NCBI GenBank assembly: GCA_041661265.1
Contig: JBAZUT010000002.1
Location: forward strand, 76,316-140,315
From: Minisyncoccota bacterium
GTDB taxonomy: Bacteria; Patescibacteriota; Minisyncoccia; JAHIHE01; JAGLIN01
Direction: 5' to 3'
Length of the DNA: 64,000 nt
This document shows positions 32,338 through 56,474 of the stretch, piece after piece. Both the position numbers and the translations under genes were made by a program. How positions within the stretch are numbered: the first letter of the stretch is position 1; each line of letters opens with the position of its first letter. The notes beneath the pieces are model-generated. The model was not told where the DNA came from. It searched no databases and saw nothing but the letters and a program-made list of their open reading frames with translations.

Positions 32338-32407
32338 ACTATCCGATATTCGAGTGATCGGGAAAATGCATTACGGAAAGCGCCTTGTTGGTGCTTTTTT
32401 TCGATTT

Positions 32408-32416
32408 GTGGTATAA
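32408..32416 (+). promoter_or_regulatory. extended -10 promoter element TGgTATAAT upstream of the giant gene
   Basis: TGGTATAAT 35 nt before the ATG; no SD sequence seen. Confidence 0.35.
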
Positions 32417-32450
32417 TAATGTCGACATTAATATAAATAAAAATAAAAAT

Positions 32451-35400
32451 ATGACCCCCAGGACCCTTTGCAGGCAAATAGTTTTTCTAGTTGCCTTCTT
32501 TGCTATAATAGCACAGGTGACTTCCCTGACGATACAAAATACCGGTTTTTCTTTGGCTTCGACGACTACAGGCGACACATCTGCGATCATCAATATGCCA
32601 TTGACTATGAATAACGGCGCGGCAGATTTTCCGCCGTCTTCCGGAATGACATTGAACGGCGCGGAAATTTTCAAGGCCAGCGTAAGCATGTCATACGTAC
32701 CGTTAATCAGCATACCAGGTCAGGCAAGTTTAAGCGGAATAACTTTTTATTTAGGTGCGAATTCAATGCCGGCAAATAAGGTTAACCCTAGTGACCCTGT
32801 CGAGGTTGACTATATTTTTAATTCTTTCAGCACCGGTTCGTTGACCGATGGAACATATGATTTTTATGCTAAAGCTTTTTATGGCAGTTCCGCTACGGTG
32901 GAGAGCGATCATTACACAGTAATTCTTGCCAGAACACCGCTTGCTCCGACGAGTTTGACGGTAGATGGAGCTCCTACCGCTTCGTCCATTAAGCTTAGAT
33001 GGATCAACCAGTCGACTACCGCGGATAAGTTTACTATAGAAAGAAAAGAAAGTTCATTGAGCAATTATACGGCTCTTCCTCTGTATGAAGTTCCAAATGC
33101 AACTACCTATACGGATGGTACGGTTGCAGCCGGAACTTCATATGATTACCGAATTCAGGCATGCAGATCCGGATCCGGTTGTTCGGGGCATTCAAATGTG
33201 ATCACTGTCAGTTCTGCCGAAAATTGTTCGCTTACTGTTTCGCTCTCCCCTGATACTCAGGCTGCTCAGTATGTCAGCCCGGGCCAAAGCGAAGCTTCTT
33301 TGGTGAAATTCAACCTTTTTCCGAATTGCGCTATTACACTGAATAGCCTCTCTGTTTCGCTCAATGGTTATACAAACATTTCCTCATTGCATCTCTACGA
33401 TAGCTCAACCCAAGTGAATGCGGTTAGTGTTGCCGGAGCAAGTGCAAGTTTTGATGGTTTAAATATACAAATTCCTGCAAGCCTGACCAGGTCTATTGAG
33501 ATCAGGGGAGATATTAATTCTTCTGCAATGTCCGGTTCAATGGTTTCTGGATCTTTTGGATCCTTTACGGCAACCAGCGCCTCAGGCTCAGTTGGCAGCA
33601 GCAACACAAGCGTTGTCGTCGGCAATGTAATGACCGTAAGCGGATATGCCGGCGATACAATTCCACCCGCCATACCGACGGAACTTGCTGCTCCAAAAAA
33701 TGATTATAACGAAGTTGATCTTTCATGGGCCGCATCCACCGATAATGTCGGAGTCGCAGGATACGAGGTTTGGAGAACTAACGGAACATGGATCAGATTA
33801 GGAAATTCTCCCACAACTTCATACATAGATACAACTGTTGCTTCGGGAACAGGTTATTATTACAAAATTATCGCATACGATGCGGCAGGAAATAAATCTC
33901 CCGAGCCGTCCCAGAGTGCATGGTTATTTTTAAACACTCCCGCATCAACGAGCTTGCCTTTACCTCCGTCCTATGTAACTGCTGAATCGATCGTCGGAAA
34001 AATTGTCGTCAGTTGGCCGCCAGCCGCCTCGGCCACAAAATACAGCATTCATAGAAAAATTGGCACGGGGACCTACCAACCCTTATCCTCAAATATAACC
34101 ATTTCTTATTATGACGACGTAAATGTTACTACTGGCAGTGTTTATCGATACAAGGTCATGGGCTGTGATGCCACCGCATGCTCAACAACAGGAACGGAAT
34201 CAAATTCTGTAACATATAACGGAGGCGGCGCGTCTTGCACCAGCTTGACTTCGGCTATTAATGACGCAGATACATCCTATGTTGCAAGTGAGCCTGTAAA
34301 CTTCACCTGGACATGTTCTCCCGGCGGTATTGCCAGTAATGTCTATATGAAGCTTTATAGATCGGATGGCACAGTCGTATCCTCTTTGAACAGCCCCAAT
34401 AATATAGGTACTCAGACATTGTATCTTAGTACTTTGAATTTATCTATTGGGTCATATATTGTTAAGGCCTGTTTCGAGTCTAATTGTTCAACGACCGCTA
34501 CCAGTCAGACATTTACGGTAGTTTCCGGCACCTCGACCGCTCCCGCCTTCACCGTATCGCCGATAGTTACTGAAAAAATAGGATACCCTTCAAAGAGGAT
34601 AATGAAAGTTGAAACGGTTTCCAGTCCGACCGGATATACGCCGACGAATATTATCGGCAAAATAAAAGATTCGTCGGGAAATATCGTCGGAAACACGACA
34701 TTCAATTTAGTTCTTCAAACTGTAGGATATTGGACATATGAATATGACATAAGCAGTCTCGCCGGAAATTACAATTTCTGCGCAAGCGGGATGTTTAACA
34801 CGACTTCCATTCCATGGGCCTGTACCACGGCCGCATTTACAGTGGCGACCACCACCCCTTCCGCCACGAGCATTTCAATTTATCCCGATGTGTTGAACAG
34901 TGCTGGAACGTTCAAAACACTGCAGATCACGGTGATGCCGTCAGGAACAAAACTGTATAACGTTTCAGGAAAGATCCGCAAGGACGGCGCATTTGGAGCC
35001 ATAGCATTCGATTCTATCGCGCTGACCTTCGATCCCTATTCAGCCTCCTGGAGAAAAGAATTTGATATGGGAAATCTCGCGGCCGGCGGAAATTATGTTT
35101 TTTGCGCAAAAGCTTCTCTTGATAGCACCGGATCAAACCCGATGCCCGAGGTTTGTACTGGAATATTCACCATAGACATCGCTGCTCCGGTGGATCAAAC
35201 CGCCACAACAACTCCTCAGCTCGAAGTGTATTTCCAGAATATCACACCTTTGGCGATCAAAGGGGATGTCAAAATTGCCATAAAAACAAATATTGAACCC
35301 GACATTGTGAACTTTAAACTGCAGAGAGAATCGGGTTCGGCCACCTATCCGGCGGCCAACAAGATCGACGCCACCAATTTCTATTTCCTATGGAATACGG

Positions 35401-37943
35401 CGCAATATTATGACGGAAACTATACCATTTCTGCGACAGCCAAAAAGGGCGTTTATGAAAAAACGGCCTTTGTGAGCGCAGTAGTCGCCAACTATTCTTC
35501 CACTCCCACAACAACTCCGACAACGCAGTCCACAGATATTTTCAATATCACTTTCAATGAAGCTTTCCAGCCCCCTCTTTCCGGAGAAAGAACCGTCTCC
35601 ATCTCATCCACCCAAAAAATGGATAGCTGCAAATTCAAGGTGGACGGCCCGAAATATGCCGAATTTCCGGGAACAAACAACGGCATGCAATGCTCCCTCG
35701 TTCTTCGCACCCTTGATTTTCCGGATGGAAAATATTTCATAAAAGCAATTGCCACAAGCGGCGTAAGCACCAAAGAAATTGTTCTGGATACTTCATTTTC
35801 AAATCAGCCGAGCACGACACTGCCACCGCCTAACCAAACATCTTCCTTCTATCTGCCGCCGGAGTGCAAGGACAAGGGATATCTGACACCGGAAACGTGC
35901 CAGAATTACATGATGCTCCCGCCGGAGTGCAGAAACCAGAATATCCTGGACCAGAAAGCCTGCGAGGCATATATGTATAAATACAGCATGCCGCCGGAAT
36001 GCGTCAGCCAGGGCGTTCAGACTCCGGAAGAATGCCAAAAAATAATCTATCTGGCCAGCATGCCGCCGGAATGCCGGAATCAGGGCGCAACGACAAAAGA
36101 AGAGTGCGACAAAATAATGAGTGTACAGTTCATGCTGACGCCGGAATGTAAATCTGCCAACATAACCGCCGCGGATGCCTGCAACACATACATGATCGAA
36201 AAATTCTCTCCTCCGGAATGCAGCAGTGCCGCAACTCAGGATGAATGCAATTACATAATGAGAAATTCATATAGCACTTTCAACGACCTGCAACCCCAGA
36301 TAACACAAAACACTTTTGGCATCGCACAGCCGGCGATAAACGAATTCCCGCCGGAATGCCGGGACGCCCGGATCACTTCCCCCGATGAATGCAAAAAACA
36401 CATGATGCTCCTTTCCATGCCCGTCGAATGCCGGGACGCCAATGTAACAACCGGACAGGAGTGCGAAAAGATCATGTTCAAGAAAAACGGACCGCCGGAA
36501 TGCATCGATGCCGGAATCGATGATCCGGCTGAGTGCGAAAAATTCATGTTCAAGAAGTATGCGCCGGACGACTGCAAGGCAACGGGCATCTTCAATCCCG
36601 AGGCGTGTAAAAAATATATGCTTGAGAAATACAGCGGAAAAGATGAAATTCCAAAAGATAAATTCCCGATCGAATGCCAGAAAGCGAATGCAAACACCTC
36701 CGAAGAATGCGACAAAGTCATGAAAACCATATACATGCCACAGGAATGCAAGGATAAGGGAATAACCGACCAGAAAGACTGCGATTCCTATTTTGAGAAA
36801 AAATATATGCCGCCCGTCTGCAAGGAAGCCGGAGCTTCGACAAGAGAAGAGTGCGATAAGGCTATGTTCAAAAAATATGCACCAAAAGAATGCCTGAAAG
36901 CCGGAATTGAAAAAGACGACGAGTGCCAAAAATATATGTTCAATCTGTATGCTCCGAAAGTGAAATGCGATAATGTGGAAGACTGGCAATGCAAGAAAAA
37001 CCTTGAAGAAGGACATCTGGGCAATATTGTTTCAAAGCAAGCTCAATTCGCTCAGATAAAAGATAATTCCGGCGAGATGATCGGAAAGTCAATGAAAGTG
37101 GGCGCCCTTATGGAATCGAAAGCATTTGAAAACAACGGAATGATCCCGCTCACACAAAAAGATACCAGTCTCAAGGTAGTTCCGGCTGCCGAGAACATGG
37201 TCCTGAACGACGAAGATACCCTTGTGCAGACCGGACCTGTCGCCTTTATGATCGACACCGACGGCGATAACCTGTCTGATGATATGGAATCGCTGCTTGG
37301 GACAGATCCGGACAAGACGGATTCGGACGGCGATGGATACAATGACGGTGAAGAGATACGGACCGGCCATGATCCTTCGGGACCCGGACTTTTCACGGGA
37401 AGCCTTTCCCCTGCCGAGAAAGCGATGATAGAAAACATAACCCTGGAACATCCGAAAACCTCCGGCGAGGTCTCGGAAACGCTTGCGGTTGAAAAGATAG
37501 ACAATGCGTCAAGCGGAAATGAAACCGACGCTCTTGGGTATCTCCTTTCGGGAACATCCGATCCGAACAGTATCGTAACCGTATATATTTATTCCGACCT
37601 GCCGCTCGTTCTGACCCTGAAAGCGAACAACGAAGGCAATTGGGAATATAAACTCGACAGATCTCTCTCCGATGGAGAACATGAGGTTTATGTTGTTGTG
37701 AATGATGAAACCGGAAAGATAGTCGCGAAAAGCAAGCCGTCAAGCCTTTTCATAAAAGAAGCGAAAGCAGTTTCTGCAAGCAATTATCTGGAAACTTCCA
37801 TAAGCGACCTCGCGGAAAAAACTCCGGCTGAGATCAGCTCTCAAAAATACAACTTTATCCTATTCCTTTCCATAACTACCGCCCTGAGCATATTCGGCGT
37901 AATGCTCATTCTCAGAAAAAGAAAGAATAATCCGGCGAAATAA
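32451..37943 (+). CDS. giant cell-surface protein (about 1830 aa): signal peptide, Fn3/Ig-like domains, 15x Cys-repeat module, Ca-binding DxDxDG repeats, C-terminal TM anchor
   Basis: Start MTPRTLCRQIVFLVAFFAIIA; Fn3-like segments (SWAASTDNVGVAGYEVWR, YYYKIIAYDAAGN); PPEC..EC repeats; DTDGDNLSDD...DSDGDGYNDGEE; C-terminal LFLSITTALSIFGVMLILRKRK. Confidence 0.85.
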   Translation: MTPRTLCRQIVFLVAFFAIIAQVTSLTIQNTGFSLASTTTGDTSAIINMPLTMNNGAADFPPSSGMTLNGAEIFKASVSMSYVPLISIPGQASLSGITFYLGANSMPANKVNPSDPVEVDYIFNSFSTGSLTDGTYDFYAKAFYGSSATVESDHYTVILARTPLAPTSLTVDGAPTASSIKLRWINQSTTADKFTIERKESSLSNYTALPLYEVPNATTYTDGTVAAGTSYDYRIQACRSGSGCSGHSNVITVSSAENCSLTVSLSPDTQAAQYVSPGQSEASLVKFNLFPNCAITLNSLSVSLNGYTNISSLHLYDSSTQVNAVSVAGASASFDGLNIQIPASLTRSIEIRGDINSSAMSGSMVSGSFGSFTATSASGSVGSSNTSVVVGNVMTVSGYAGDTIPPAIPTELAAPKNDYNEVDLSWAASTDNVGVAGYEVWRTNGTWIRLGNSPTTSYIDTTVASGTGYYYKIIAYDAAGNKSPEPSQSAWLFLNTPASTSLPLPPSYVTAESIVGKIVVSWPPAASATKYSIHRKIGTGTYQPLSSNITISYYDDVNVTTGSVYRYKVMGCDATACSTTGTESNSVTYNGGGASCTSLTSAINDADTSYVASEPVNFTWTCSPGGIASNVYMKLYRSDGTVVSSLNSPNNIGTQTLYLSTLNLSIGSYIVKACFESNCSTTATSQTFTVVSGTSTAPAFTVSPIVTEKIGYPSKRIMKVETVSSPTGYTPTNIIGKIKDSSGNIVGNTTFNLVLQTVGYWTYEYDISSLAGNYNFCASGMFNTTSIPWACTTAAFTVATTTPSATSISIYPDVLNSAGTFKTLQITVMPSGTKLYNVSGKIRKDGAFGAIAFDSIALTFDPYSASWRKEFDMGNLAAGGNYVFCAKASLDSTGSNPMPEVCTGIFTIDIAAPVDQTATTTPQLEVYFQNITPLAIKGDVKIAIKTNIEPDIVNFKLQRESGSATYPAANKIDATNFYFLWNTAQYYDGNYTISATAKKGVYEKTAFVSAVVANYSSTPTTTPTTQSTDIFNITFNEAFQPPLSGERTVSISSTQKMDSCKFKVDGPKYAEFPGTNNGMQCSLVLRTLDFPDGKYFIKAIATSGVSTKEIVLDTSFSNQPSTTLPPPNQTSSFYLPPECKDKGYLTPETCQNYMMLPPECRNQNILDQKACEAYMYKYSMPPECVSQGVQTPEECQKIIYLASMPPECRNQGATTKEECDKIMSVQFMLTPECKSANITAADACNTYMIEKFSPPECSSAATQDECNYIMRNSYSTFNDLQPQITQNTFGIAQPAINEFPPECRDARITSPDECKKHMMLLSMPVECRDANVTTGQECEKIMFKKNGPPECIDAGIDDPAECEKFMFKKYAPDDCKATGIFNPEACKKYMLEKYSGKDEIPKDKFPIECQKANANTSEECDKVMKTIYMPQECKDKGITDQKDCDSYFEKKYMPPVCKEAGASTREECDKAMFKKYAPKECLKAGIEKDDECQKYMFNLYAPKVKCDNVEDWQCKKNLEEGHLGNIVSKQAQFAQIKDNSGEMIGKSMKVGALMESKAFENNGMIPLTQKDTSLKVVPAAENMVLNDEDTLVQTGPVAFMIDTDGDNLSDDMESLLGTDPDKTDSDGDGYNDGEEIRTGHDPSGPGLFTGSLSPAEKAMIENITLEHPKTSGEVSETLAVEKIDNASSGNETDALGYLLSGTSDPNSIVTVYIYSDLPLVLTLKANNEGNWEYKLDRSLSDGEHEVYVVVNDETGKIVAKSKPSSLFIKEAKAVSASNYLETSISDLAEKTPAEISSQKYNFILFLSITTALSIFGVMLILRKRKNNPAK
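35862..37010 (+). repeat. about 15 tandem 24-aa coding repeats [M/F]PPEC(x9-10)[E/D]C.K.M..KY within the giant protein
   Basis: Repeat seen directly in the translation. Confidence 0.8.
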
Positions 37944-39660: not shown

Positions 39661-41058
39661 ATGAATATGCCAATAAAACTCTATAACACATTTTCAAGGA
39701 AACTCGAGGAATTCAAGTCCATCGAAAAGGACAAAGTTCGCATGTATAACTGCGGTCCTACCGTTTATGACTATGTGCATATCGGCAATTTCAGGACATA
39801 TCTCATGGCGGATTTCCTCAGAAGAATGTTCGAATATTCCGGTTATGAGGTCAAACAGATCAAGAACATCACTGATGTCGGACATCTCACTCAGGACGAC
39901 ATTGAAGCCGGAGAGGATAAGATGCTCAAGGCCGCAAAACGCGAAAAAAAGAGCCCCTATGATATTGCCCGATTCTACGAAAAATCGTTCCATGAAGATG
40001 AAACCAAACTTAACATACTTCCTGCCTTCAATTTCCCCAGAGCCACCGAATATATCCCCCAGATGATAGAAATGATAAAAAAACTCATAGAAAAAGGCTT
40101 TGCATATGAGGTCAAGGGATCTGTTTATTATGATGTCGATAAATTTGCCGATTACGGAAAGCTGTCCGGGAACACGCTGGAAAATCTGAAAATAGGAGCT
40201 CGCTTGGAAGCGCATCCCGACAAAAAGAATCCTTATGATTTCGCCCTTTGGCTCAAAGCCGATCCCGATCACCTGATGCAATGGGATTCTCCCTGGAGCC
40301 GCGGCTACCCCGGATGGCATATTGAATGTTCCGCAATGAGCTCGAGCAATCTCGGCGAAACGATCGATGTCCACACCGGAGGAGAAGACAATGTATTCCC
40401 CCACCACGAAGATGAAATAGCGCAATCCGAAGGAGCCAGCGGGAAAAAATTCGTAAACTATTGGATACATGGACGCCATCTTCTGGTTGACGGAGAAAAG
40501 ATGTCTAAATCAAAGGGTAATTTCTATCCTATTTCCGAGTTCGAAAAAAGGAAGATAGATCCGATCTCTTTCCGCTATTTGTGCCTCACCACGCATTTCA
40601 CGTCTCAATTGAATTTCACGTGGAAAAGCCTTGAAGCCGGCCAGAATGCCCTGAACAAGATGATCGAGTTCATGGGATCCGATGAAAACAAGGGTGAACA
40701 GGAAGAAGGTTATGTGATCAGCGAATTCGATGATAAGTTCAGAGAGTCTCTGGAAAACAACCTGGACACCCCAAAAGCGCTGGCAACCGCATGGGAAATG
40801 ATCAGATCGAAAGATTACTCCGCTTGCGACAAAAAAGAAACACTTCTCAAATTTGACCGCTTTTTCGGATTTAACCTCAAAAACATAAAAACCGTTTCAA
40901 CTGAAATCCCGGAAAATATTCAAAAATTATCCGGCGAAAGGCTTGAAGCGAGAAAAAACAAGGACTGGAAAAGATCCGATGAGCTGAGAGATCTGATAGA
41001 GAAAAAAGGGTTTTCCATAAAAGACACGAAAGACGGACAGATCATAAAAAAGAAGTAG
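39661..41058 (+). CDS. cysS: cysteine--tRNA ligase
   Basis: [13 protein letters not shown] (HIGH) and KMSKSKGN motifs. Confidence 0.95.
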
Positions 41059-49425: not shown

Positions 49426-52400
49426 TTATGCCTTTTTTACGCCAATCGCGACATTTACATCTCTTATCTTCAGATCCTTCACAAGATCGAAATTATTTTT
49501 TTCTATCGTTTCTATTGGCGTTATATCGGAAGCAAGGCACTCTTTTTGGATGCTTTCTTTCCATCCGCCCATGATCTTCCCGACAAGCCCATTTCCACCC
49601 CCGGACGAATAGGCGACCGAAATCCTATCGTTTCTGTCATATTTAGCCTCTTTTCTCATTGTTTGTATATGGCGGATGATCTCCCTCGAATAGCCCTCCA
49701 TTTCAAGCTCTTCGGTTATTTCAAGATATAATCCTATTTTTATTGTGCCATCATCTTCATATGCCCATCCCTCTCTTGTTTCAAATTCATTCACATAACG
49801 CGCCTCTTTAACATTCAATTCATCCCTCATAATTTCAAATAACTCATCGGTGAGTGCCGCATCTGTAAATTTATCCTTCACATCATACTTATTACTAGTT
49901 TCCTTAGTAGCCTCGATTTTCCCAATAATCAGCACACTCAACGGCATCCTAACTCTAATAGAATTTTTAGCTCTTGCCGCCAAAGCCAATTTAGTTACTC
50001 TGCGAACCAAATCCATTGACTGAGACAGCTCGTTATCAATCAATTTTTTATTTGTTTCCGGGAATTTCTCCAGATGCACCGAAGCATTTCCTGTCAGATT
50101 CCTGAAGATTTCGTCCGCAAGAAATGGCATGAACGGCGCCATGACTTTCGAATATTCGATCATGACATAATATAAAGTTCTGAAAGCATTCATTCTGTCT
50201 TCAGCATCGTTCTCGGACGAAAACCTCTTTCTTGATCTCCTGATATACCAATTTGAAAGTTTATCCGTGAAATCACGAAGGGGTCTTGAAGCCTTAACGA
50301 GATCATAGTTTTCCATCTCGCCGTTCACTCCGCTTATAAGAAGATTCAGTTCGGACACAATCCATCGGTCGAGAAAATTATCTGATATTTTTTTGCTTTC
50401 GAGGTCTTTTGCCTCGAGTTTTGCCATCTCCAGATTCATCGCAAGAAACGAGTAGGCATTCCAAAGAATGAGAATGAACCGCTTCAAAACTTCCTCCACG
50501 CCCTTCTCGGAAAAATTTAGATTCTCGCCTTTCATGACCGGAGAAGAGAGCAGATAATATCGCAAGGAATCCGCGCCATATTTTTCAATAAGAAGATTCG
50601 GATCCGGATAGTTCTTCAGGCTTTTGCTCATTTTCTGCCCGTCTTCAGCCTGAACTATCCCGTTCACGATCACATTCTTGAATGCCGCCTTATCGAAGAG
50701 AGCAGTTGAAAGAACCATCAAAGTATAGAACCATCCCCTCGTCTGGTCCAACCCTTCGGCAATGAAATCCGCCGGGAAACTCTTATTGAATTTTTCAACA
50801 TTCTCAAACGGATAATGATATTGGGCATAGGGCATCGATCCGGATTCGAACCAGCAATCGAATACGTCTCCGACAATTACCGCTTCCCCCGCGCACTTCG
50901 GACATTTCGCCTTGACCATGTCGATGTTCGGCTTATGCATATTGAACTCCCGCCCGCCCTCGTCAATATAGAATATCTCGCTCTCGCAATACCCAAGCGC
51001 ATCTTGCGCAACGAAACAATCCGCTATGGAAATTCCGCTCAAAACCCTCCTGAAGATCGCATTGATGCCTCCATGGCTTACGACCAGAATGTTCTTCCCG
51101 GGATATTTTTCTATGCACCGGCCGATGAATTTTCTGACGCGCACTTCCATCTGCCTTCTCGACTCCCCGTCTCCGCCCAGGACAAAATCATATTTTTCTT
51201 CAAGAGTTGCGATCTTCTTGTATTTTTTATAAAGCTCGTCATTCTCCAGAAGATATTTGGCCGTTCTATCGTTCCATGAACCATATTTATATTCCATCAC
51301 CAGATCATCTGTAACAACCTCCGCTTTCAATGCTTTGCTTATTATTTCCGCAGTCTGGCGGGTGCGCAGGACCGGAGACGTTATAATTATATCTATTTTT
51401 TTATCTTTCAGTTCTTTCGCTGCTTTTTCGGCATGTCCGATGCCATCCTCCGTCAGCGGATATTTTTCAAGGCTGTCCGATTTGATATTTTCCAGATTCT
51501 TTCCGCTCTCCCCATGGCGCATAAAAATGATCTTGGTTATCTTCTTTTCAGTATTATTCCTGAGTTCATCGATCGAACTTACGACCAATTTTTCTCCGCA
51601 ATCCTTGCACTTCCAGACCGGAAGCGGAGCTCCCCAGAACCTGCTCCTGGAAACCGCCCAGTCGCGCGCGTCCTCAAGCCACTTGCCGAATCTCCCTTCC
51701 TTGATATATTCCGGAACCCACCTTATCTTCTTGTTGTTCTTTATCATCTTGTCCTTGATGTCCGTGACCTTCACAAACCATGAGCTTGTCGCATAATTGA
51801 TGAGCGGAGTATTGCATCTCCAGCAATGAGGGTAGCTATGCTCGTATTTCTCCTTGGCATACAGTGTTCCGGTGTGAGCAAGATATTTTATGATCTCGAT
51901 GTCAGTTTTCTGGCTGTCTTCGGCAGACTTCACTTTCATACCTGCGAATTCTTTCATCTCGGGAGTGAATGTGCCATCCGTCCTCACGTTGACGATTATT
52001 GGAAGCCCGATCTGTTTTGCCGCCTGCATATCGATCTCGCCGAATGCCCCGTTTATGGTCACGATCCCGGTTCCGTCTTCCAGGCTCACATAATCCGTCA
52101 AATGCGTCTTATAGACATTTTCATTTTTCTTAACCCTGTCGTCATCTTTATAAAAATCGGAAAATGGATGAATATATGAAATATGCTCCATGTCTTTTCC
52201 TTCTATCTCTTTTATGGCATCGTATTTTTCAACTTTACCTTTTTCAATGACATAAGGGAGTCTTTCTTTTACGCAAATGAATTGTTCGCCTTGCGCCGAA
52301 AACAGCGTATAACTGAAATCTCCGCCCACAGCAAGGCCCATTGTCGTCGGAACACTCCATGGAGTTGTCGTCCACGCCAGAAAACTTGTCGGCTTTCCTG

Positions 52401-53067
52401 TGCATTGCTTATCCAGGAAGGCTTTGTCGGTGATCTTGAATTTCACGATAACCGAAAAATCTTTTACCGTCTTGTATCCCAGCGTCACTTCGAAATTGGA
52501 TAGCGTAGTTTCACATCTCGGGCAAAGATGCATGGACTTTTTCCCTTCATATATCAGACCTTTTTTATACAGTTCAGAAAAGACCCACCATATTGATTCC
52601 GTGTATTTCCAGTCCATGGTCTTGTAGTCATTATCCATATCCACCCACCTGCCGACTCGCGGAATGAATTTTTTCCACTCATCCGCATATCGAAGCACAG
52701 ATGAATGACAGGCATCATTGAACTTGTCCACGCCCCACTTTTCTATGTCCTTTTTGTTCTTTATGCCATGCTCTTTTTCGATCAGATTCTCGATCGGAAG
52801 CCCATGACAATCCCAACCCCACTTTCTCTCAACTCTTTTTCCCTTCATGGTCCAGAACCTGGGCACCGCATCTTTCATAAGACTCGCCACCACGTTCCCG
52901 TAATGAGGAAGTCCCGTCGCAAAAGGAGGACCGTCAAAAAAGCTATACGCCGGCTTTTCTCCCTCCTCGCCCACGGATCTTTCGAAAATCTTATTTTCTT
53001 TCCAATATGCCATCAATTCACGCTCCATTTCCGGAAAATTTTGCTTTGGATCGGCTTTTTTGAACAT
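49426..53067 (-). CDS. ileS: isoleucine--tRNA ligase (type 2) with an inserted histidine-phosphatase domain
   Basis: HYGN (HIGH) region, CP1 editing domain, KMSKS, Zn knuckles; start at MFKKADP (ORF-track extension to 53169 unlikely). Confidence 0.93.
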   Translation of the reverse strand: MFKKADPKQNFPEMERELMAYWKENKIFERSVGEEGEKPAYSFFDGPPFATGLPHYGNVVASLMKDAVPRFWTMKGKRVERKWGWDCHGLPIENLIEKEHGIKNKKDIEKWGVDKFNDACHSSVLRYADEWKKFIPRVGRWVDMDNDYKTMDWKYTESIWWVFSELYKKGLIYEGKKSMHLCPRCETTLSNFEVTLGYKTVKDFSVIVKFKITDKAFLDKQCTGKPTSFLAWTTTPWSVPTTMGLAVGGDFSYTLFSAQGEQFICVKERLPYVIEKGKVEKYDAIKEIEGKDMEHISYIHPFSDFYKDDDRVKKNENVYKTHLTDYVSLEDGTGIVTINGAFGEIDMQAAKQIGLPIIVNVRTDGTFTPEMKEFAGMKVKSAEDSQKTDIEIIKYLAHTGTLYAKEKYEHSYPHCWRCNTPLINYATSSWFVKVTDIKDKMIKNNKKIRWVPEYIKEGRFGKWLEDARDWAVSRSRFWGAPLPVWKCKDCGEKLVVSSIDELRNNTEKKITKIIFMRHGESGKNLENIKSDSLEKYPLTEDGIGHAEKAAKELKDKKIDIIITSPVLRTRQTAEIISKALKAEVVTDDLVMEYKYGSWNDRTAKYLLENDELYKKYKKIATLEEKYDFVLGGDGESRRQMEVRVRKFIGRCIEKYPGKNILVVSHGGINAIFRRVLSGISIADCFVAQDALGYCESEIFYIDEGGREFNMHKPNIDMVKAKCPKCAGEAVIVGDVFDCWFESGSMPYAQYHYPFENVEKFNKSFPADFIAEGLDQTRGWFYTLMVLSTALFDKAAFKNVIVNGIVQAEDGQKMSKSLKNYPDPNLLIEKYGADSLRYYLLSSPVMKGENLNFSEKGVEEVLKRFILILWNAYSFLAMNLEMAKLEAKDLESKKISDNFLDRWIVSELNLLISGVNGEMENYDLVKASRPLRDFTDKLSNWYIRRSRKRFSSENDAEDRMNAFRTLYYVMIEYSKVMAPFMPFLADEIFRNLTGNASVHLEKFPETNKKLIDNELSQSMDLVRRVTKLALAARAKNSIRVRMPLSVLIIGKIEATKETSNKYDVKDKFTDAALTDELFEIMRDELNVKEARYVNEFETREGWAYEDDGTIKIGLYLEITEELEMEGYSREIIRHIQTMRKEAKYDRNDRISVAYSSGGGNGLVGKIMGGWKESIQKECLASDITPIETIEKNNFDLVKDLKIRDVNVAIGVKKA
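51025..51543 (-). other. inserted histidine-phosphatase (phosphoglycerate-mutase-like) domain within ileS, about 170 aa
   Basis: KIIFMRHGESGKN ... ILVVSHGGINAIFRRV, lying between the WKCKDCGEK and CPKCAG...WFESGSMP segments of IleRS. Confidence 0.7.
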
Positions 53068-53271
53068 AATATGATTTATTTGTTTACATATCCATTTTAA
53101 GCTAATATAAGCAAAAAGTAAATATATTCCCCGATGTTGACAAAATCGTTCATATCCAATAAACTTCAAGGAAACCCTAAAATATTTTGGTCCGGGAATA
53201 TGCCTTTATTGCATAGATATAGCCATATTCTTGTCCTATAATAAGGACACGTAATACAAAGGTGATATATT

Positions 53272-53988
53272 TTGTCCGACACGAAAAATAAAATCGACAT
53301 AAACCCCGAAAATGCCTTGATTTTGGCAAAATGCAACCCAAAACTGGCACTTTTGATAGCGGAAATGCTTGAAAGGAAAGGAGATGACGAAAAGATCATT
53401 GAGGTGTTCCGCCTCGCTCCCGGCGACACGCTGAAATTCATCTACAAGAATCCCCGGTTCGCATCGCAGCTTGTAAAGATCATACCGGATAAGGTCGATG
53501 AGATCATCAATATGCCCAACCTTCCGAAAGAAGAGCTTGTCGAGATCGCCCTCTGTTTTCCGGATAAAATGCTCAGGATAGCCAGGAAAAATCCGGATAG
53601 CATCACCCTGATGTTCTTTGAAGCGATGTACAATGCAGATGATGATCCTAAAATTGAAAAGCAGAAAATAGCCCTAATCAAGAAAAAGGTCTGCGAGATA
53701 GGGCAGGAATTCCCGGATCACATAATGCCGATCTTGTCGAAAATAAAAGACTCCAGGAAATGCGAAGATGAGCAAAAGGGAATAATGATCGAAACCGCAA
53801 AGTTCTTTCCCGAAAAGGCGGTTGATATCGCAACATTCTTCAATCTTGAAATCGATATCGCAAGGGAGGTTCCAAGCGTCGCCGCAAAGATCGCAATTGA
53901 AAAACCATTGCTGGCATTCGCCATAATCGAAGCAGTCCCTGCATCAGAAAAAGAAATAAGGGAACATTTCACCCTGAAATATAAATAA
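53272..53988 (+). CDS. hypothetical alpha-helical repeat protein (238 aa)
   Basis: ORF followed by a terminator. Confidence 0.5.
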   Translation: MSDTKNKIDINPENALILAKCNPKLALLIAEMLERKGDDEKIIEVFRLAPGDTLKFIYKNPRFASQLVKIIPDKVDEIINMPNLPKEELVEIALCFPDKMLRIARKNPDSITLMFFEAMYNADDDPKIEKQKIALIKKKVCEIGQEFPDHIMPILSKIKDSRKCEDEQKGIMIETAKFFPEKAVDIATFFNLEIDIAREVPSVAAKIAIEKPLLAFAIIEAVPASEKEIREHFTLKYK

Positions 53989-55374: not shown

Positions 55375-55824
55375 ATGAAAATCTTAGCAATAAACAAACG
55401 GGCGACTTTTGACTATGAGATCCTGGAAAAGCGGGAGGGCGGTTTGGTGTTGTCCGGACAGGAGGTCAAATCGATCAAATCCGGACACATGAGCCTCAAG
55501 GGCGCATATGTCACTTCCCGCGGCTTGGAACTGTTTCTCACCAATTCCAATGTTCCCGCCTATCAGCCCAAAAACACCTCCGAAAGCTATGATCCCACAA
55601 GACCCCGGAAGGTCATGCTGCATAAACAGGAAATAAAAACCCTCCTCGGAAAGATAACCCAGAGAGGCTTGACATTGGTGCCAATTAAGGTATACTCCAT
55701 ACATGGTTTGATAAAGCTTGAATTCGGCATAGGAAAAGGAAAAAAGAAGGTTGATAAGCGGGAAGATATCAAGAAAAGAGAAGACAAAATGAGAATTGCA
55801 AGAGCTTTAAGACCTAAGGCCTAA
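55375..55824 (+). CDS. smpB: SsrA-binding protein
   Basis: IA.NK.A.FDY.I.E..E.G..L.G.EVKS motif. Confidence 0.93.
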   Translation: MKILAINKRATFDYEILEKREGGLVLSGQEVKSIKSGHMSLKGAYVTSRGLELFLTNSNVPAYQPKNTSESYDPTRPRKVMLHKQEIKTLLGKITQRGLTLVPIKVYSIHGLIKLEFGIGKGKKKVDKREDIKKREDKMRIARALRPKA

Positions 55825-55880: not shown

Positions 55881-56268
55881 GGGGATGAAATTTGGATTCG
55901 ATAGGAATCTGATTTAAAGACTGCCAATTGAGCACGCCTGTAATCTCATAAAACCTTCGGGCAAATCATAAGTGCAAAATCACTTACAGAAAAAGTGGCA
56001 TCTCTATTCAGAATGCCGTCTTTTTCAACCGCTATTGCTTAATTTAAGCCGATAGCCATCGAATTACCGATTCTTGGTAGGTAAACCTCGGTGTCATATT
56101 CCAGGATAGCGCTTGACCGCTTGGGATCAAGCCGCGAAAATACACCAAGCAAGGATCTACGGGTAACTTGGCTGTTCATCACCCATAGATCCCACTTCGA
56201 ACAGCATATATTGGTAGAAGGTCTTTGAAGGGATATCTTACACGCGGGTTCAACTCCCGCCATCTCCA
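55881..56268 (+). ncRNA. ssrA: tmRNA (ssrA)
   Basis: 5' GGGGAUGAAAUUUGGAUUCGAUAGG resembles canonical tmRNA 5' end; 3' GCGGGUUCAACUCCCGCCAUCUCCA T-arm and acceptor pairing with 5' GGGGAUG; directly downstream of smpB. Confidence 0.85.
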
Positions 56269-56474
56269 CTTAATTTCCCACCCCCGCTTTCAGTTACCGG
56301 GTAAAACTTATTTTTTGATAAGTATTTCAGTTTCAAGAAAGATTCTTCAATCTCTGGTTTTTAATTAATATTCCAATAACTTAATTTAAAAATTATATAT
56401 TCAGAAATTATTTAGGAATTAGAAATTAGAAATTAAAAATTAATTGTAAACATATAGCACAAAAAGAATTCAGG

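Follow-up and report, generated by a model that had tools for sequence, protein, structure and literature searches.

The ileS gene of a Minisyncoccota bacterium, which lies in the 64,000-nt stretch of DNA analyzed here (assembly GCA_041661265.1, contig JBAZUT010000002.1, positions 76,316–140,315; referred to as the window), encodes an isoleucyl-tRNA synthetase (IleRS) whose catalytic core is interrupted by a second enzyme fold, a branch-1 histidine-phosphatase domain related to phosphoglycerate mutase (PGAM). The domain is inserted, in frame, into a surface loop at the tip of subdomain CP3, where it separates one CxxC half of a zinc knuckle from the other. Taken as a whole, the evidence leads us to favor, on balance, a reading in which the protein would be a working IleRS with an active phosphomonoesterase tethered to it, the association of the two having been selected. 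Nucleotide positions are counted from the first letter of the window, residue numbers are those of the 1213-residue IleRS, and feature coordinates are collected in Table 1.

Position, fold and catalytic residues of the inserted domain

The inserted domain is recognized by Pfam family PF00300 (His_Phos_1), with a score of 119.1 bits over residues 513–705 in the context of the whole protein (E = 2.5e-34) and of 123.8 bits for the excised segment (E = 9e-36), the gathering score being 21.7. Its limits are set by alignment with an IleRS of known structure: residues 3–506 and 707–1056 match, collinearly, residues 2–478 and 485–830 of 8C8V (Protein Data Bank, PDB, code), and the ~200 residues in between stand in place of about six in the solved structures. 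The domain boundary is sharp, since in close relatives devoid of the insert (P0043, P0049, P0054 and P0087) the helix starting with SSIDEL runs straight into the segment LHKPxID. An earlier note, made from the sequence alone, had placed a histidine-phosphatase domain of about 170 residues between the zinc-knuckle halves, at 51025–51543. The family, the insertion point and the order of the motifs that it quoted (HYGN, residues 55–58; WKCKDCGEK, 485–493; KIIFMRHGESGKN, 512–524; ILVVSHGGINAIF, 660–672; CPKCAG, 722–727; WFESGSMP, 739–746; KMSKS, 812–816) are borne out, but its interval, which corresponds to residues 509–681, drops the last 25 or so residues of a domain that is about 200 residues long.

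Subdomain CP3 corresponds to residues 473–534 of the Candida albicans IleRS in the paper describing the Candida enzyme (PMC7191050). It bears a zinc-binding motif in Thermus thermophilus IleRS (PMC7191050), as it does in the query, and both its topology and its zinc site vary between IleRS lineages (PMC7191050). Residues at the base of CP3 line the active site (PMC12077802).

The insert displays the same Arg-His...Arg...Glu...His set as the small branch-1 phosphatases, and the insertions and the tail specific to the cofactor-dependent phosphoglycerate mutases (dPGMs) are absent. The conservation of the catalytic residues, counted over 108 insert-bearing sequences, is given in Table 1. When the insert is aligned with PspA and CobC, the predicted general acid, E592, falls on the conserved glutamate of the family. 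Conservation of N524 in the same 108 sequences is 94%. Mean pairwise identity is 38% in the insert, 58% in the rest of the protein and 71% in the Rossmann halves.

AlphaFold modeling, a check proposed in the earlier note, gave a predicted local distance difference test score (pLDDT) of 96.4 and a predicted template modeling score (pTM) of 0.92 for the excised domain, and of 87.2 and 0.82, respectively, for residues 1–1070, with the insert and both linkers at a pLDDT of at least 89. According to these models, the insert is a complete, autonomous PGAM-type fold held on short, confidently modeled linkers. Searching with the predicted structure, Foldseek returned PspA, CobC, PhoE and dPGMs with a probability of 1.0 and TM-scores of 0.7–0.8. 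The nearest structures, all with the same ~200-residue PGAM fold as the model, are the phosphoserine phosphatase PspA (4IJ5), a histidine phosphatase of the riboflavin pathway, HFP (9MMH), the alpha-ribazole phosphatase CobC (6E4B/6NRU) and PhoE (1H2E). Thus, Pfam, NCBIfam, the PDB sequence search and the fold agree in assigning the insert to the branch-1 histidine phosphatases. It differs from the small enzymes of this branch in that it is only 20–26% identical to them and is embedded in another enzyme instead of being free-standing.

As to the reaction catalyzed, the insert reaches none of the NCBIfam equivalog cutoffs of its nearest families (dPGM_arch, 102 versus 225; ribazole_cobC, 82.8 versus 162.9; PspA, 68 versus 350), and several dPGM-conserved positions that follow E592 vary among the 108 insert-bearing sequences. 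For these two reasons a true phosphoglycerate mutase is not favored, and we infer from the sequence that the insert is more likely a phosphatase, i.e. a phosphomonoesterase.

The host enzyme

On the minus strand, positions 49426–53169 form a single uninterrupted open reading frame (ORF) when counted from TTG. Counted from MFKKADP at 53067, as in the earlier note, the protein has 1213 residues. This start is consistent with the 1213-residue homologs P0001–P0003, the closest homologs being equally long. The protein scores 902.6 bits against the NCBIfam equivalog model TIGR00392 (cutoff 621.4), the match falling into two stretches with the insert between them, and its best PDB matches are IleRSs (8c8v, 8wnd, 7d5c and 1ile; E about 1e-215). 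The order of its domains is that of the type-2 enzymes of Priestia megaterium (IleRS2, 8C8V), T. thermophilus (1ILE) and C. albicans (7D5C), namely a Rossmann half, the CP core, the CP1 editing domain, CP2, CP3, a Rossmann half with KMSKS, the anticodon-binding domain and a DUF5915-type C-terminus. Correspondingly, the Pfam scan yields tRNA-synt_1 split in two, His_Phos_1, then Anticodon_1 and DUF5915. Two features set the query apart from these structures, the second enzyme fold in CP3 and the HIGH signature, which reads HYGN.

The regions that the earlier note attributed to IleRS (HYGN in place of HIGH, CP1 editing and KMSKS) are all present. Residues 196–414 align with the editing-domain structure of T. 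thermophilus IleRS (1wk8), and 51 sequences show no variation in the CP1 motifs WTTTPW, GTG and D346. H711 and D716, in the C-terminal part of CP3, are invariant or nearly so in the insert-bearing alignment, as are the columns of WFESG (residues 739–743) and KMSKS (residues 812–816). The fourth histidine of the HIGH signature is normally conserved in class I synthetases. In a set of 121 sequences (120 relatives plus the query), the column reads HYGH in 109, HYGN in the query, P0002, P0004 and P0008, and HYGQ in P0079 and P0097. The occurrence of the identical protein in independent assemblies shows the HYGN variant to be real. Judged by its motifs, the host is a bona fide type-2 IleRS, with KMSKS and the CP1 editing motifs intact.

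The next-best NCBIfam models are those of the mupirocin-resistant IleRSs MupA (740.9 bits) and MupB (720.1 bits), both exception models with a cutoff of 1900. Because these scores lie far under the cutoff, the query does not belong with MupA or MupB and the likeness is that of type-2 IleRSs in general. A curated precedent for an extra enzymatic domain in IleRS is NF040702 (ileS_w_GNAT, 'isoleucine--tRNA ligase, N-acetyltransferase domain-containing'), but the query scores 295 bits against it for a cutoff of 1999 and has no acetyltransferase Pfam match. Neither the host nor the insert falls in a curated subfamily that names a function. We found no curated family for His_Phos-bearing IleRSs among the annotations, NCBI calling them mostly 'class I tRNA ligase family protein' and otherwise 'isoleucine--tRNA ligase'.

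Distribution, gain and loss of the insert

A whole-protein search retrieved more than 100 clusters from NCBI, JGI, ENA and Logan, 45–83% identical to the query, which combine PF00133 and PF00300 with the same insertion point. The lineages named among them (Parcubacteria, Pacebacteria, Minisyncoccia, Berkelbacteria, Niyogibacteria and Gracilibacteria) all belong to the Patescibacteria. Among the matches listed from GTDB species genomes, a sample that gives no prevalence of the insert, 12 loci encode an IleRS spanning the whole insert; they come from Minisyncoccia, Nomurabacteria, Yanofskybacteria, Wolfebacteria, Paceibacterota, Saccharibacteria (2 loci, L007 and L008, both from metagenome-assembled genomes, MAGs, of uncultured members), Peregrinibacteria and Peribacteria, 2 other bacteria and 1 MAG labeled Gammaproteobacteria. 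Eight further loci of the Candidate Phyla Radiation (CPR) among the same matches have no insert. Going by this comparison of sequences, an IleRS with the insert is what a large part of the Patescibacteria normally has, and not a peculiarity of one genome. The earlier note, which did not recognize a standard IleRS architecture, was made without knowledge of this distribution.

The MAG mentioned above, labeled 'uncultured Gammaproteobacteria', carries its insert-bearing IleRS at locus L012 (CAZKMF010000082.1); the label may result from a binning or taxonomy error, since all the other insert-bearing loci belong to Patescibacteria or to unnamed bacteria.

One may ask whether the architecture is an artifact (a chimeric assembly or a frameshifted neighboring gene) or an intein-like, mobile or otherwise selfish insertion, possibilities partly raised in the earlier note. 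The GC content is indeed slightly lower across the insert (0.42) than in its flanks (0.47–0.50). However, the exact 1213-residue protein has been deposited on contigs that fall into three size classes, among them the independent Logan assembly SRR6484324, which excludes a chimeric assembly or a frameshift, and the same junctions recur in the more than 100 divergent homologs. Split IleRS genes were suggested by 700-residue matches that start just before the insert, but these do not start with Met, so that the top short 'half' proteins represent fragments cut off at contig edges. An intein, already discarded in the earlier note, finds no support either: no Hint, intein-splicing or homing-endonuclease Pfam family is matched at E ≤ 0.01 over the whole protein, and the insert is fully covered by His_Phos_1. 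Finally, the catalytic residues are strongly constrained, and their invariance over deep divergence argues against the selfish insertion that the earlier note had considered. For this window, artifact and selfish element are refuted, and we give such explanations a negligible probability.

The insert has been lost repeatedly. In a neighbor-joining tree built from 907 core columns, insert-less sequences nest at no fewer than six places among insert-bearing ones, and the core identity of insert-less/insert-bearing pairs reaches 82–88% (e.g. P0046/P0010 and P0054/P0034), with clean, in-frame boundaries. Such nesting at such identity points to repeated clean loss, and hence to a domain that is dispensable for aminoacylation. 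The zinc site, in turn, is not required to hold the domain, since the zinc-knuckle cysteines of CP3 are lost in some insert-bearing relatives (P0103, P0122, P0098 and P0120, e.g. VWEG..EN-GATE, HPETG).

Further inserted domains in IleRSs and CCA-adding enzymes

CP3 is not the only site at which IleRS relatives have acquired a domain. Additional His_Phos domains occur after query residue ~757–767 (P0237, P0156, the second copy of P0151, and P0220, where GNAT precedes it) and after query residue ~876–895 (P0103, P0127, P0237 and P0156), and the domain is duplicated in tandem inside CP3 in P0133, P0160 and locus L014, the copy number rising up to four in P0128. MutT-like NUDIX domains are found at two positions of the CP1 editing region, after query residue 218 (P0007, P0008, P0042, P0046, P0051 and P0052) and after query residue 311 (P0015 and P0080), in hosts with or without the His_Phos insert. 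The GNAT-bearing relatives P0220 and P0180 also have a His_Phos domain, and P0180 contains an IS200-like Y1 transposase domain in frame within IleRS.

A second tRNA enzyme shows the same kind of architecture. In CCA-adding enzymes of CPR bacteria (Dojkabacteria-like), at least 15 clusters carry a His_Phos insertion beside the HD domain, directly following its motif HMFYYP.ADWR, and close relatives have no insert (P0211, P0270–P0280, P0282 and P0285). This His_Phos domain, which keeps the motifs RH[GAS], SPxxR, E...G and H, was acquired independently of the IleRS insert.

When the insert itself was used as a query, every long protein checked among the best 150 representatives at 50% identity was an IleRS; the other entries among these 150 were free-standing 200-residue relatives, tandem double phosphatases, one glycosyltransferase fusion and one CCA-adding enzyme. 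The free-standing proteins of ~200 residues and the tandem double His_Phos proteins of ~360–420 residues (P0126, locus L002 74–676; P0130; P0135; P0141) could have given rise to the insert or derive from it. The possibility that P0126 is a miscalled piece of a broken ileS was rejected, as its 1.3-kb contig has no downstream IleRS coding sequence; this protein is genuinely free-standing.

Possible role of the tethered domain

In the reading that we favor, the IleRS would charge tRNA-Ile as usual, as its motifs suggest, and the insert, with its full catalytic set, would be an active phosphomonoesterase tethered to it. Following the mechanism of the family, the phosphoryl group would pass to His518, with Arg517, Arg568 and His665 holding the phosphate and Glu592 acting as general acid, and hydrolysis of phospho-His518 would follow. 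The physical association with IleRS would itself be selected, because His_Phos domains were gained at three or more IleRS sites and in tandem arrays, NUDIX domains at two more sites and, independently, His_Phos in the CCA-adding enzymes.

Alternatively, an ordinary housekeeping enzyme of central or cofactor metabolism (PGAM-, PspA- or CobC-like) could have lodged in a permissive surface loop of an essential, constitutive gene of a streamlined CPR genome, the fusion only guaranteeing its expression, with no functional link to IleRS. We regard this as possible, if rather doubtful. CP3 does tolerate large changes, as its topology and zinc site differ between lineages (PMC7191050) and the Cys ligands are lost in some relatives; unrelated cargo (the GNAT, NUDIX and Y1 transposase domains) is found inside IleRS relatives; the insert has been cleanly lost many times; and the nearest curated families are metabolic.

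Several other observations likewise weigh against a selected coupling or against the premise of a working synthetase. The subfamily has close free-standing members of ~200 residues (P0126 and P0130, 45% and 42% identical to the insert) and is joined to a glycosyltransferase in P0205, which indicates that the domain fuses promiscuously. The insert carries no net positive charge (mean –1.3, pI 6.8), and so gives no indication that it binds RNA by itself. Within 3 kb of the insert-less CPR ileS loci we found no His_Phos gene, the sole such neighbor having been found in a Firmicute, so that gene order gives no support for coupling. GNAT inserts fit poorly with a simple theme of nucleotide hydrolysis. 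As regards the synthetase, the query HIGH motif deviates from the usual HYGH; furthermore, although the gene has the look of the housekeeping ileS of its Patescibacteria (CPR, Minisyncoccia-like) host, the window covers 64 kb and the rest of the genome may contain another ileS. The neutral charge, the silence of the neighborhood, the promiscuous fusions and the GNAT co-inserts keep alive the idea of a domain that merely profits from its host. What this idea leaves unexplained, however, is the independent capture of His_Phos at a minimum of three IleRS sites and in the CCA-adding enzyme. Neither does it account for the class I cysteinyl-tRNA synthetase (CysRS) of the same window, which has no insert, nor for the fact that the long matches checked among the 150 best representatives are all IleRSs.

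What would the phosphomonoesterase act on? The earlier note had suggested, as possible roles, a moonlighting phosphatase acting on a nucleotide or alarmone, or chemistry related to resistance. The MutT-like NUDIX co-inserts, the structural neighbors acting on ribose- or ribityl-phosphates and the parallel of the CCA-adding enzyme point to a nucleotide-type or a tRNA-end phosphoester. In a rough split, we tentatively propose a nucleotide-type phosphomonoester (a nucleoside monophosphate, or a 2'/3'-phospho-adenosine species that the synthetase produces or encounters) and give the same low credence to an unrelated metabolite; a 2'/3'-phosphorylated tRNA 3' end seems less probable still, a protein or regulatory role is rather improbable, and something else takes the remaining share.

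The tRNA-end option amounts to a healing activity: a 2'- or 3'-phosphate, possibly resulting from the opening of a 2',3'-cyclic phosphate, would be removed from a damaged tRNA held by IleRS so that it can be aminoacylated again, and the domain would do the same job in the CPR CCA-adding enzymes. Both hosts of an internal His_Phos domain, IleRS and CCA-adding enzyme, do bind the tRNA 3' terminus. By analogy, a precedent for end healing on such enzymes may be seen in the HD domain of the Escherichia coli CCA-adding enzyme, which is reported (Yakunin et al. 2004) to have 2',3'-cyclic phosphodiesterase, 2'-nucleotidase and phosphatase activities. On the other hand, histidine phosphatases are not known to work on the ends of RNA, the domain has no basic character, IleRS is the sole synthetase seen here with His_Phos, and the use of ATP with release of pyrophosphate, which is common to both hosts, explains the co-occurrence equally well. 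We therefore consider tRNA healing unlikely.

Even less likely, in our opinion, is a regulatory or non-catalytic role, in which the domain would bind a phosphorylated metabolite or a phosphoprotein and act allosterically on IleRS, or would be a protein phosphohistidine phosphatase like SixA or the C-terminal domain of MutT1. His_Phos domains can act on phosphoproteins, for instance sensor kinases in the case of the C-terminal domain of MutT1 (PMC12407098) and Ndk in that of SixA (PMC12934123); SixA is a weak match of the insert, and residues at the base of CP3 line the active site (PMC12077802). Nevertheless, the catalytic set is conserved in its entirety, with the general acid among its members, which suggests turnover rather than mere binding, and repeated loss with no other visible change in IleRS speaks against an integral regulatory role.

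Two kinds of precedent bear on the preferred reading of a tethered, selected phosphomonoesterase. Firstly, branch-1 His_Phos domains are fused to nucleotide- or nucleic acid-processing enzymes in mycobacterial MutT1, which consists of a NUDIX domain and an RHG histidine-phosphatase domain (PMC11784022), and in RNase H/acid phosphatases of the Rv2228c type; some IleRS relatives likewise combine NUDIX and His_Phos. These are, however, end-to-end fusions and not insertions in a catalytic core, and the query has no NUDIX domain and scores far below the cutoff of NF052459. Secondly, the CP1 editing domain of class Ia synthetases and the HD phosphoesterase of the CCA-adding enzyme exemplify a second hydrolytic site inserted in, or appended to, an enzyme acting at the tRNA 3' end. 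The CP1 domain differs in that it hydrolyzes aminoacyl esters and is universal in IleRS, and a link of the insert to tRNA, or to a product of the synthetase, would be drawn by analogy.

Putting these elements together, we offer with considerable reserve the proposal that in Patescibacteria IleRS was on several occasions equipped with a third catalytic site, and the CCA-adding enzyme independently with a similar one, in the form of His_Phos, sometimes with a MutT-like NUDIX or a GNAT domain, functionally coupled to the tRNA 3'-end or adenylate chemistry of the host; this site might repair tRNA ends with a 2'- or 3'-phosphate, or break down, where it matters, a by-product of nucleotide type or a toxin that mimics an adenylate. 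The searchable full-text literature yielded no account of an IleRS with an inserted His_Phos, NUDIX or GNAT domain, nor of a CCA-adding enzyme with a His_Phos insertion.

Genomic surroundings

The window looks like an ordinary CPR chromosome, with genes for CTP synthase, RNase Y, DnaK, CysRS, DnaB, RecR, RecO, the smpB-tmRNA pair, ScpA/B and cell-envelope glycosyltransferases; no second His_Phos domain was found within its 64 kb. As CysRS has no insert, domain insertion is not general to the class I synthetases of this genome. The 1852-residue ORF, which is followed by a histidine kinase gene, probably encodes a large surface protein.

Table 1. Coordinates of the ileS features and of other genes of the window
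Feature	Position	Strand	Basis or remark
ileS, 1213-residue type-2 (eukaryote/archaea-like) IleRS	49426–53067	–	ORF, TIGR00392, PDB matches; TAA stop at 49426–49428
HIGH signature, HYGN (fourth His replaced by Asn), residues 55–58	52894–52905	–	Motif reading and homolog alignment
CP-core zinc knuckle, CPRC and CWRC	52513–52524 and 51814–51825	–	Flanks the CP1 editing domain
CP1 editing domain, about residues 200–410	51838–52470	–	Aligns with 1wk8
N-terminal part of CP3: strand, first CxxC knuckle C487/C490 (51598–51609), helix SSIDELRNN	51550–51630	–	8c8v alignment to chain residue 478; secondary structure from model
Inserted histidine phosphatase (branch 1, PGAM-like), residues 507–706	50950–51549	–	PF00300 match, residues 513–705 (50953–51531); absent from solved IleRSs
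R517-H518-G519, phosphate-binding Arg and predicted nucleophilic His (within KIIFMRHGESGKN)	51511–51519	–	R and H in 108/108; G in 104/108
R568, second phosphate-pocket Arg (SPxxR motif)	51364–51366	–	108/108
E592, predicted general acid	51292–51294	–	E in 101/108, D in 7/108
H665, second catalytic His (SHG motif; within ILVVSHGGINAIF)	51073–51075	–	108/108
C-terminal part of CP3: HKPNID (50920–50937), second CxxC knuckle C722/C725 (50893–50904)	50863–50949	–	8c8v alignment resumes at chain residue 485
Second half of Rossmann fold, WFESG (50839–50853) to KMSKS (50620–50634)	50620–50853	–	Motifs and structure alignment
Anticodon-binding domain, residues 900–1046, and type-2 C-terminal domain DUF5915, residues 1094–1212	49432–50370	–	PF08264, E = 5e-34; PF19302, E = 4e-20
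1852-residue ORF	32385–37943	+	Weak fn3 and Big_13 matches
CysRS, 465 residues, ordinary size	39661–41058	+	
238-residue ORF, directly upstream of ileS, divergent	53272–53988	+	No Pfam match; gene call kept in independent assembly L001
smpB	55375–55824	+	tmRNA gene directly after
tmRNA, tag peptide AKSLTEKVASLFRMPSFSTAIA	55881–56271	+	Rfam, 113 bits

Implications

Aminoacyl-tRNA synthetases are among the best-studied enzymes, and, to our knowledge, their known inserted catalytic modules are essentially editing domains. Here, an unrelated and, by prediction, active hydrolase lies within the catalytic core of IleRS, where it is conserved over much of a major bacterial radiation, has been gained more than once and has been lost many times. 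The insert also explains an annotation problem, namely that pipelines downgrade such genes to 'class I tRNA ligase family protein', and provides a simple sequence marker for lineages within the Patescibacteria. If the coupling is not functional, the protein offers a clean natural case of an essential enzyme tolerating the insertion of a whole domain, which would be useful for protein engineering. If it is functional, there would be unrecognized chemistry around tRNA charging in minimal genomes, for which nucleotide sanitation, tRNA-end repair and defense against synthetase-targeting compounds are candidates, and a third catalytic site coupled to the chemistry of its host would add a new class to the accessory activities of aminoacyl-tRNA synthetases.

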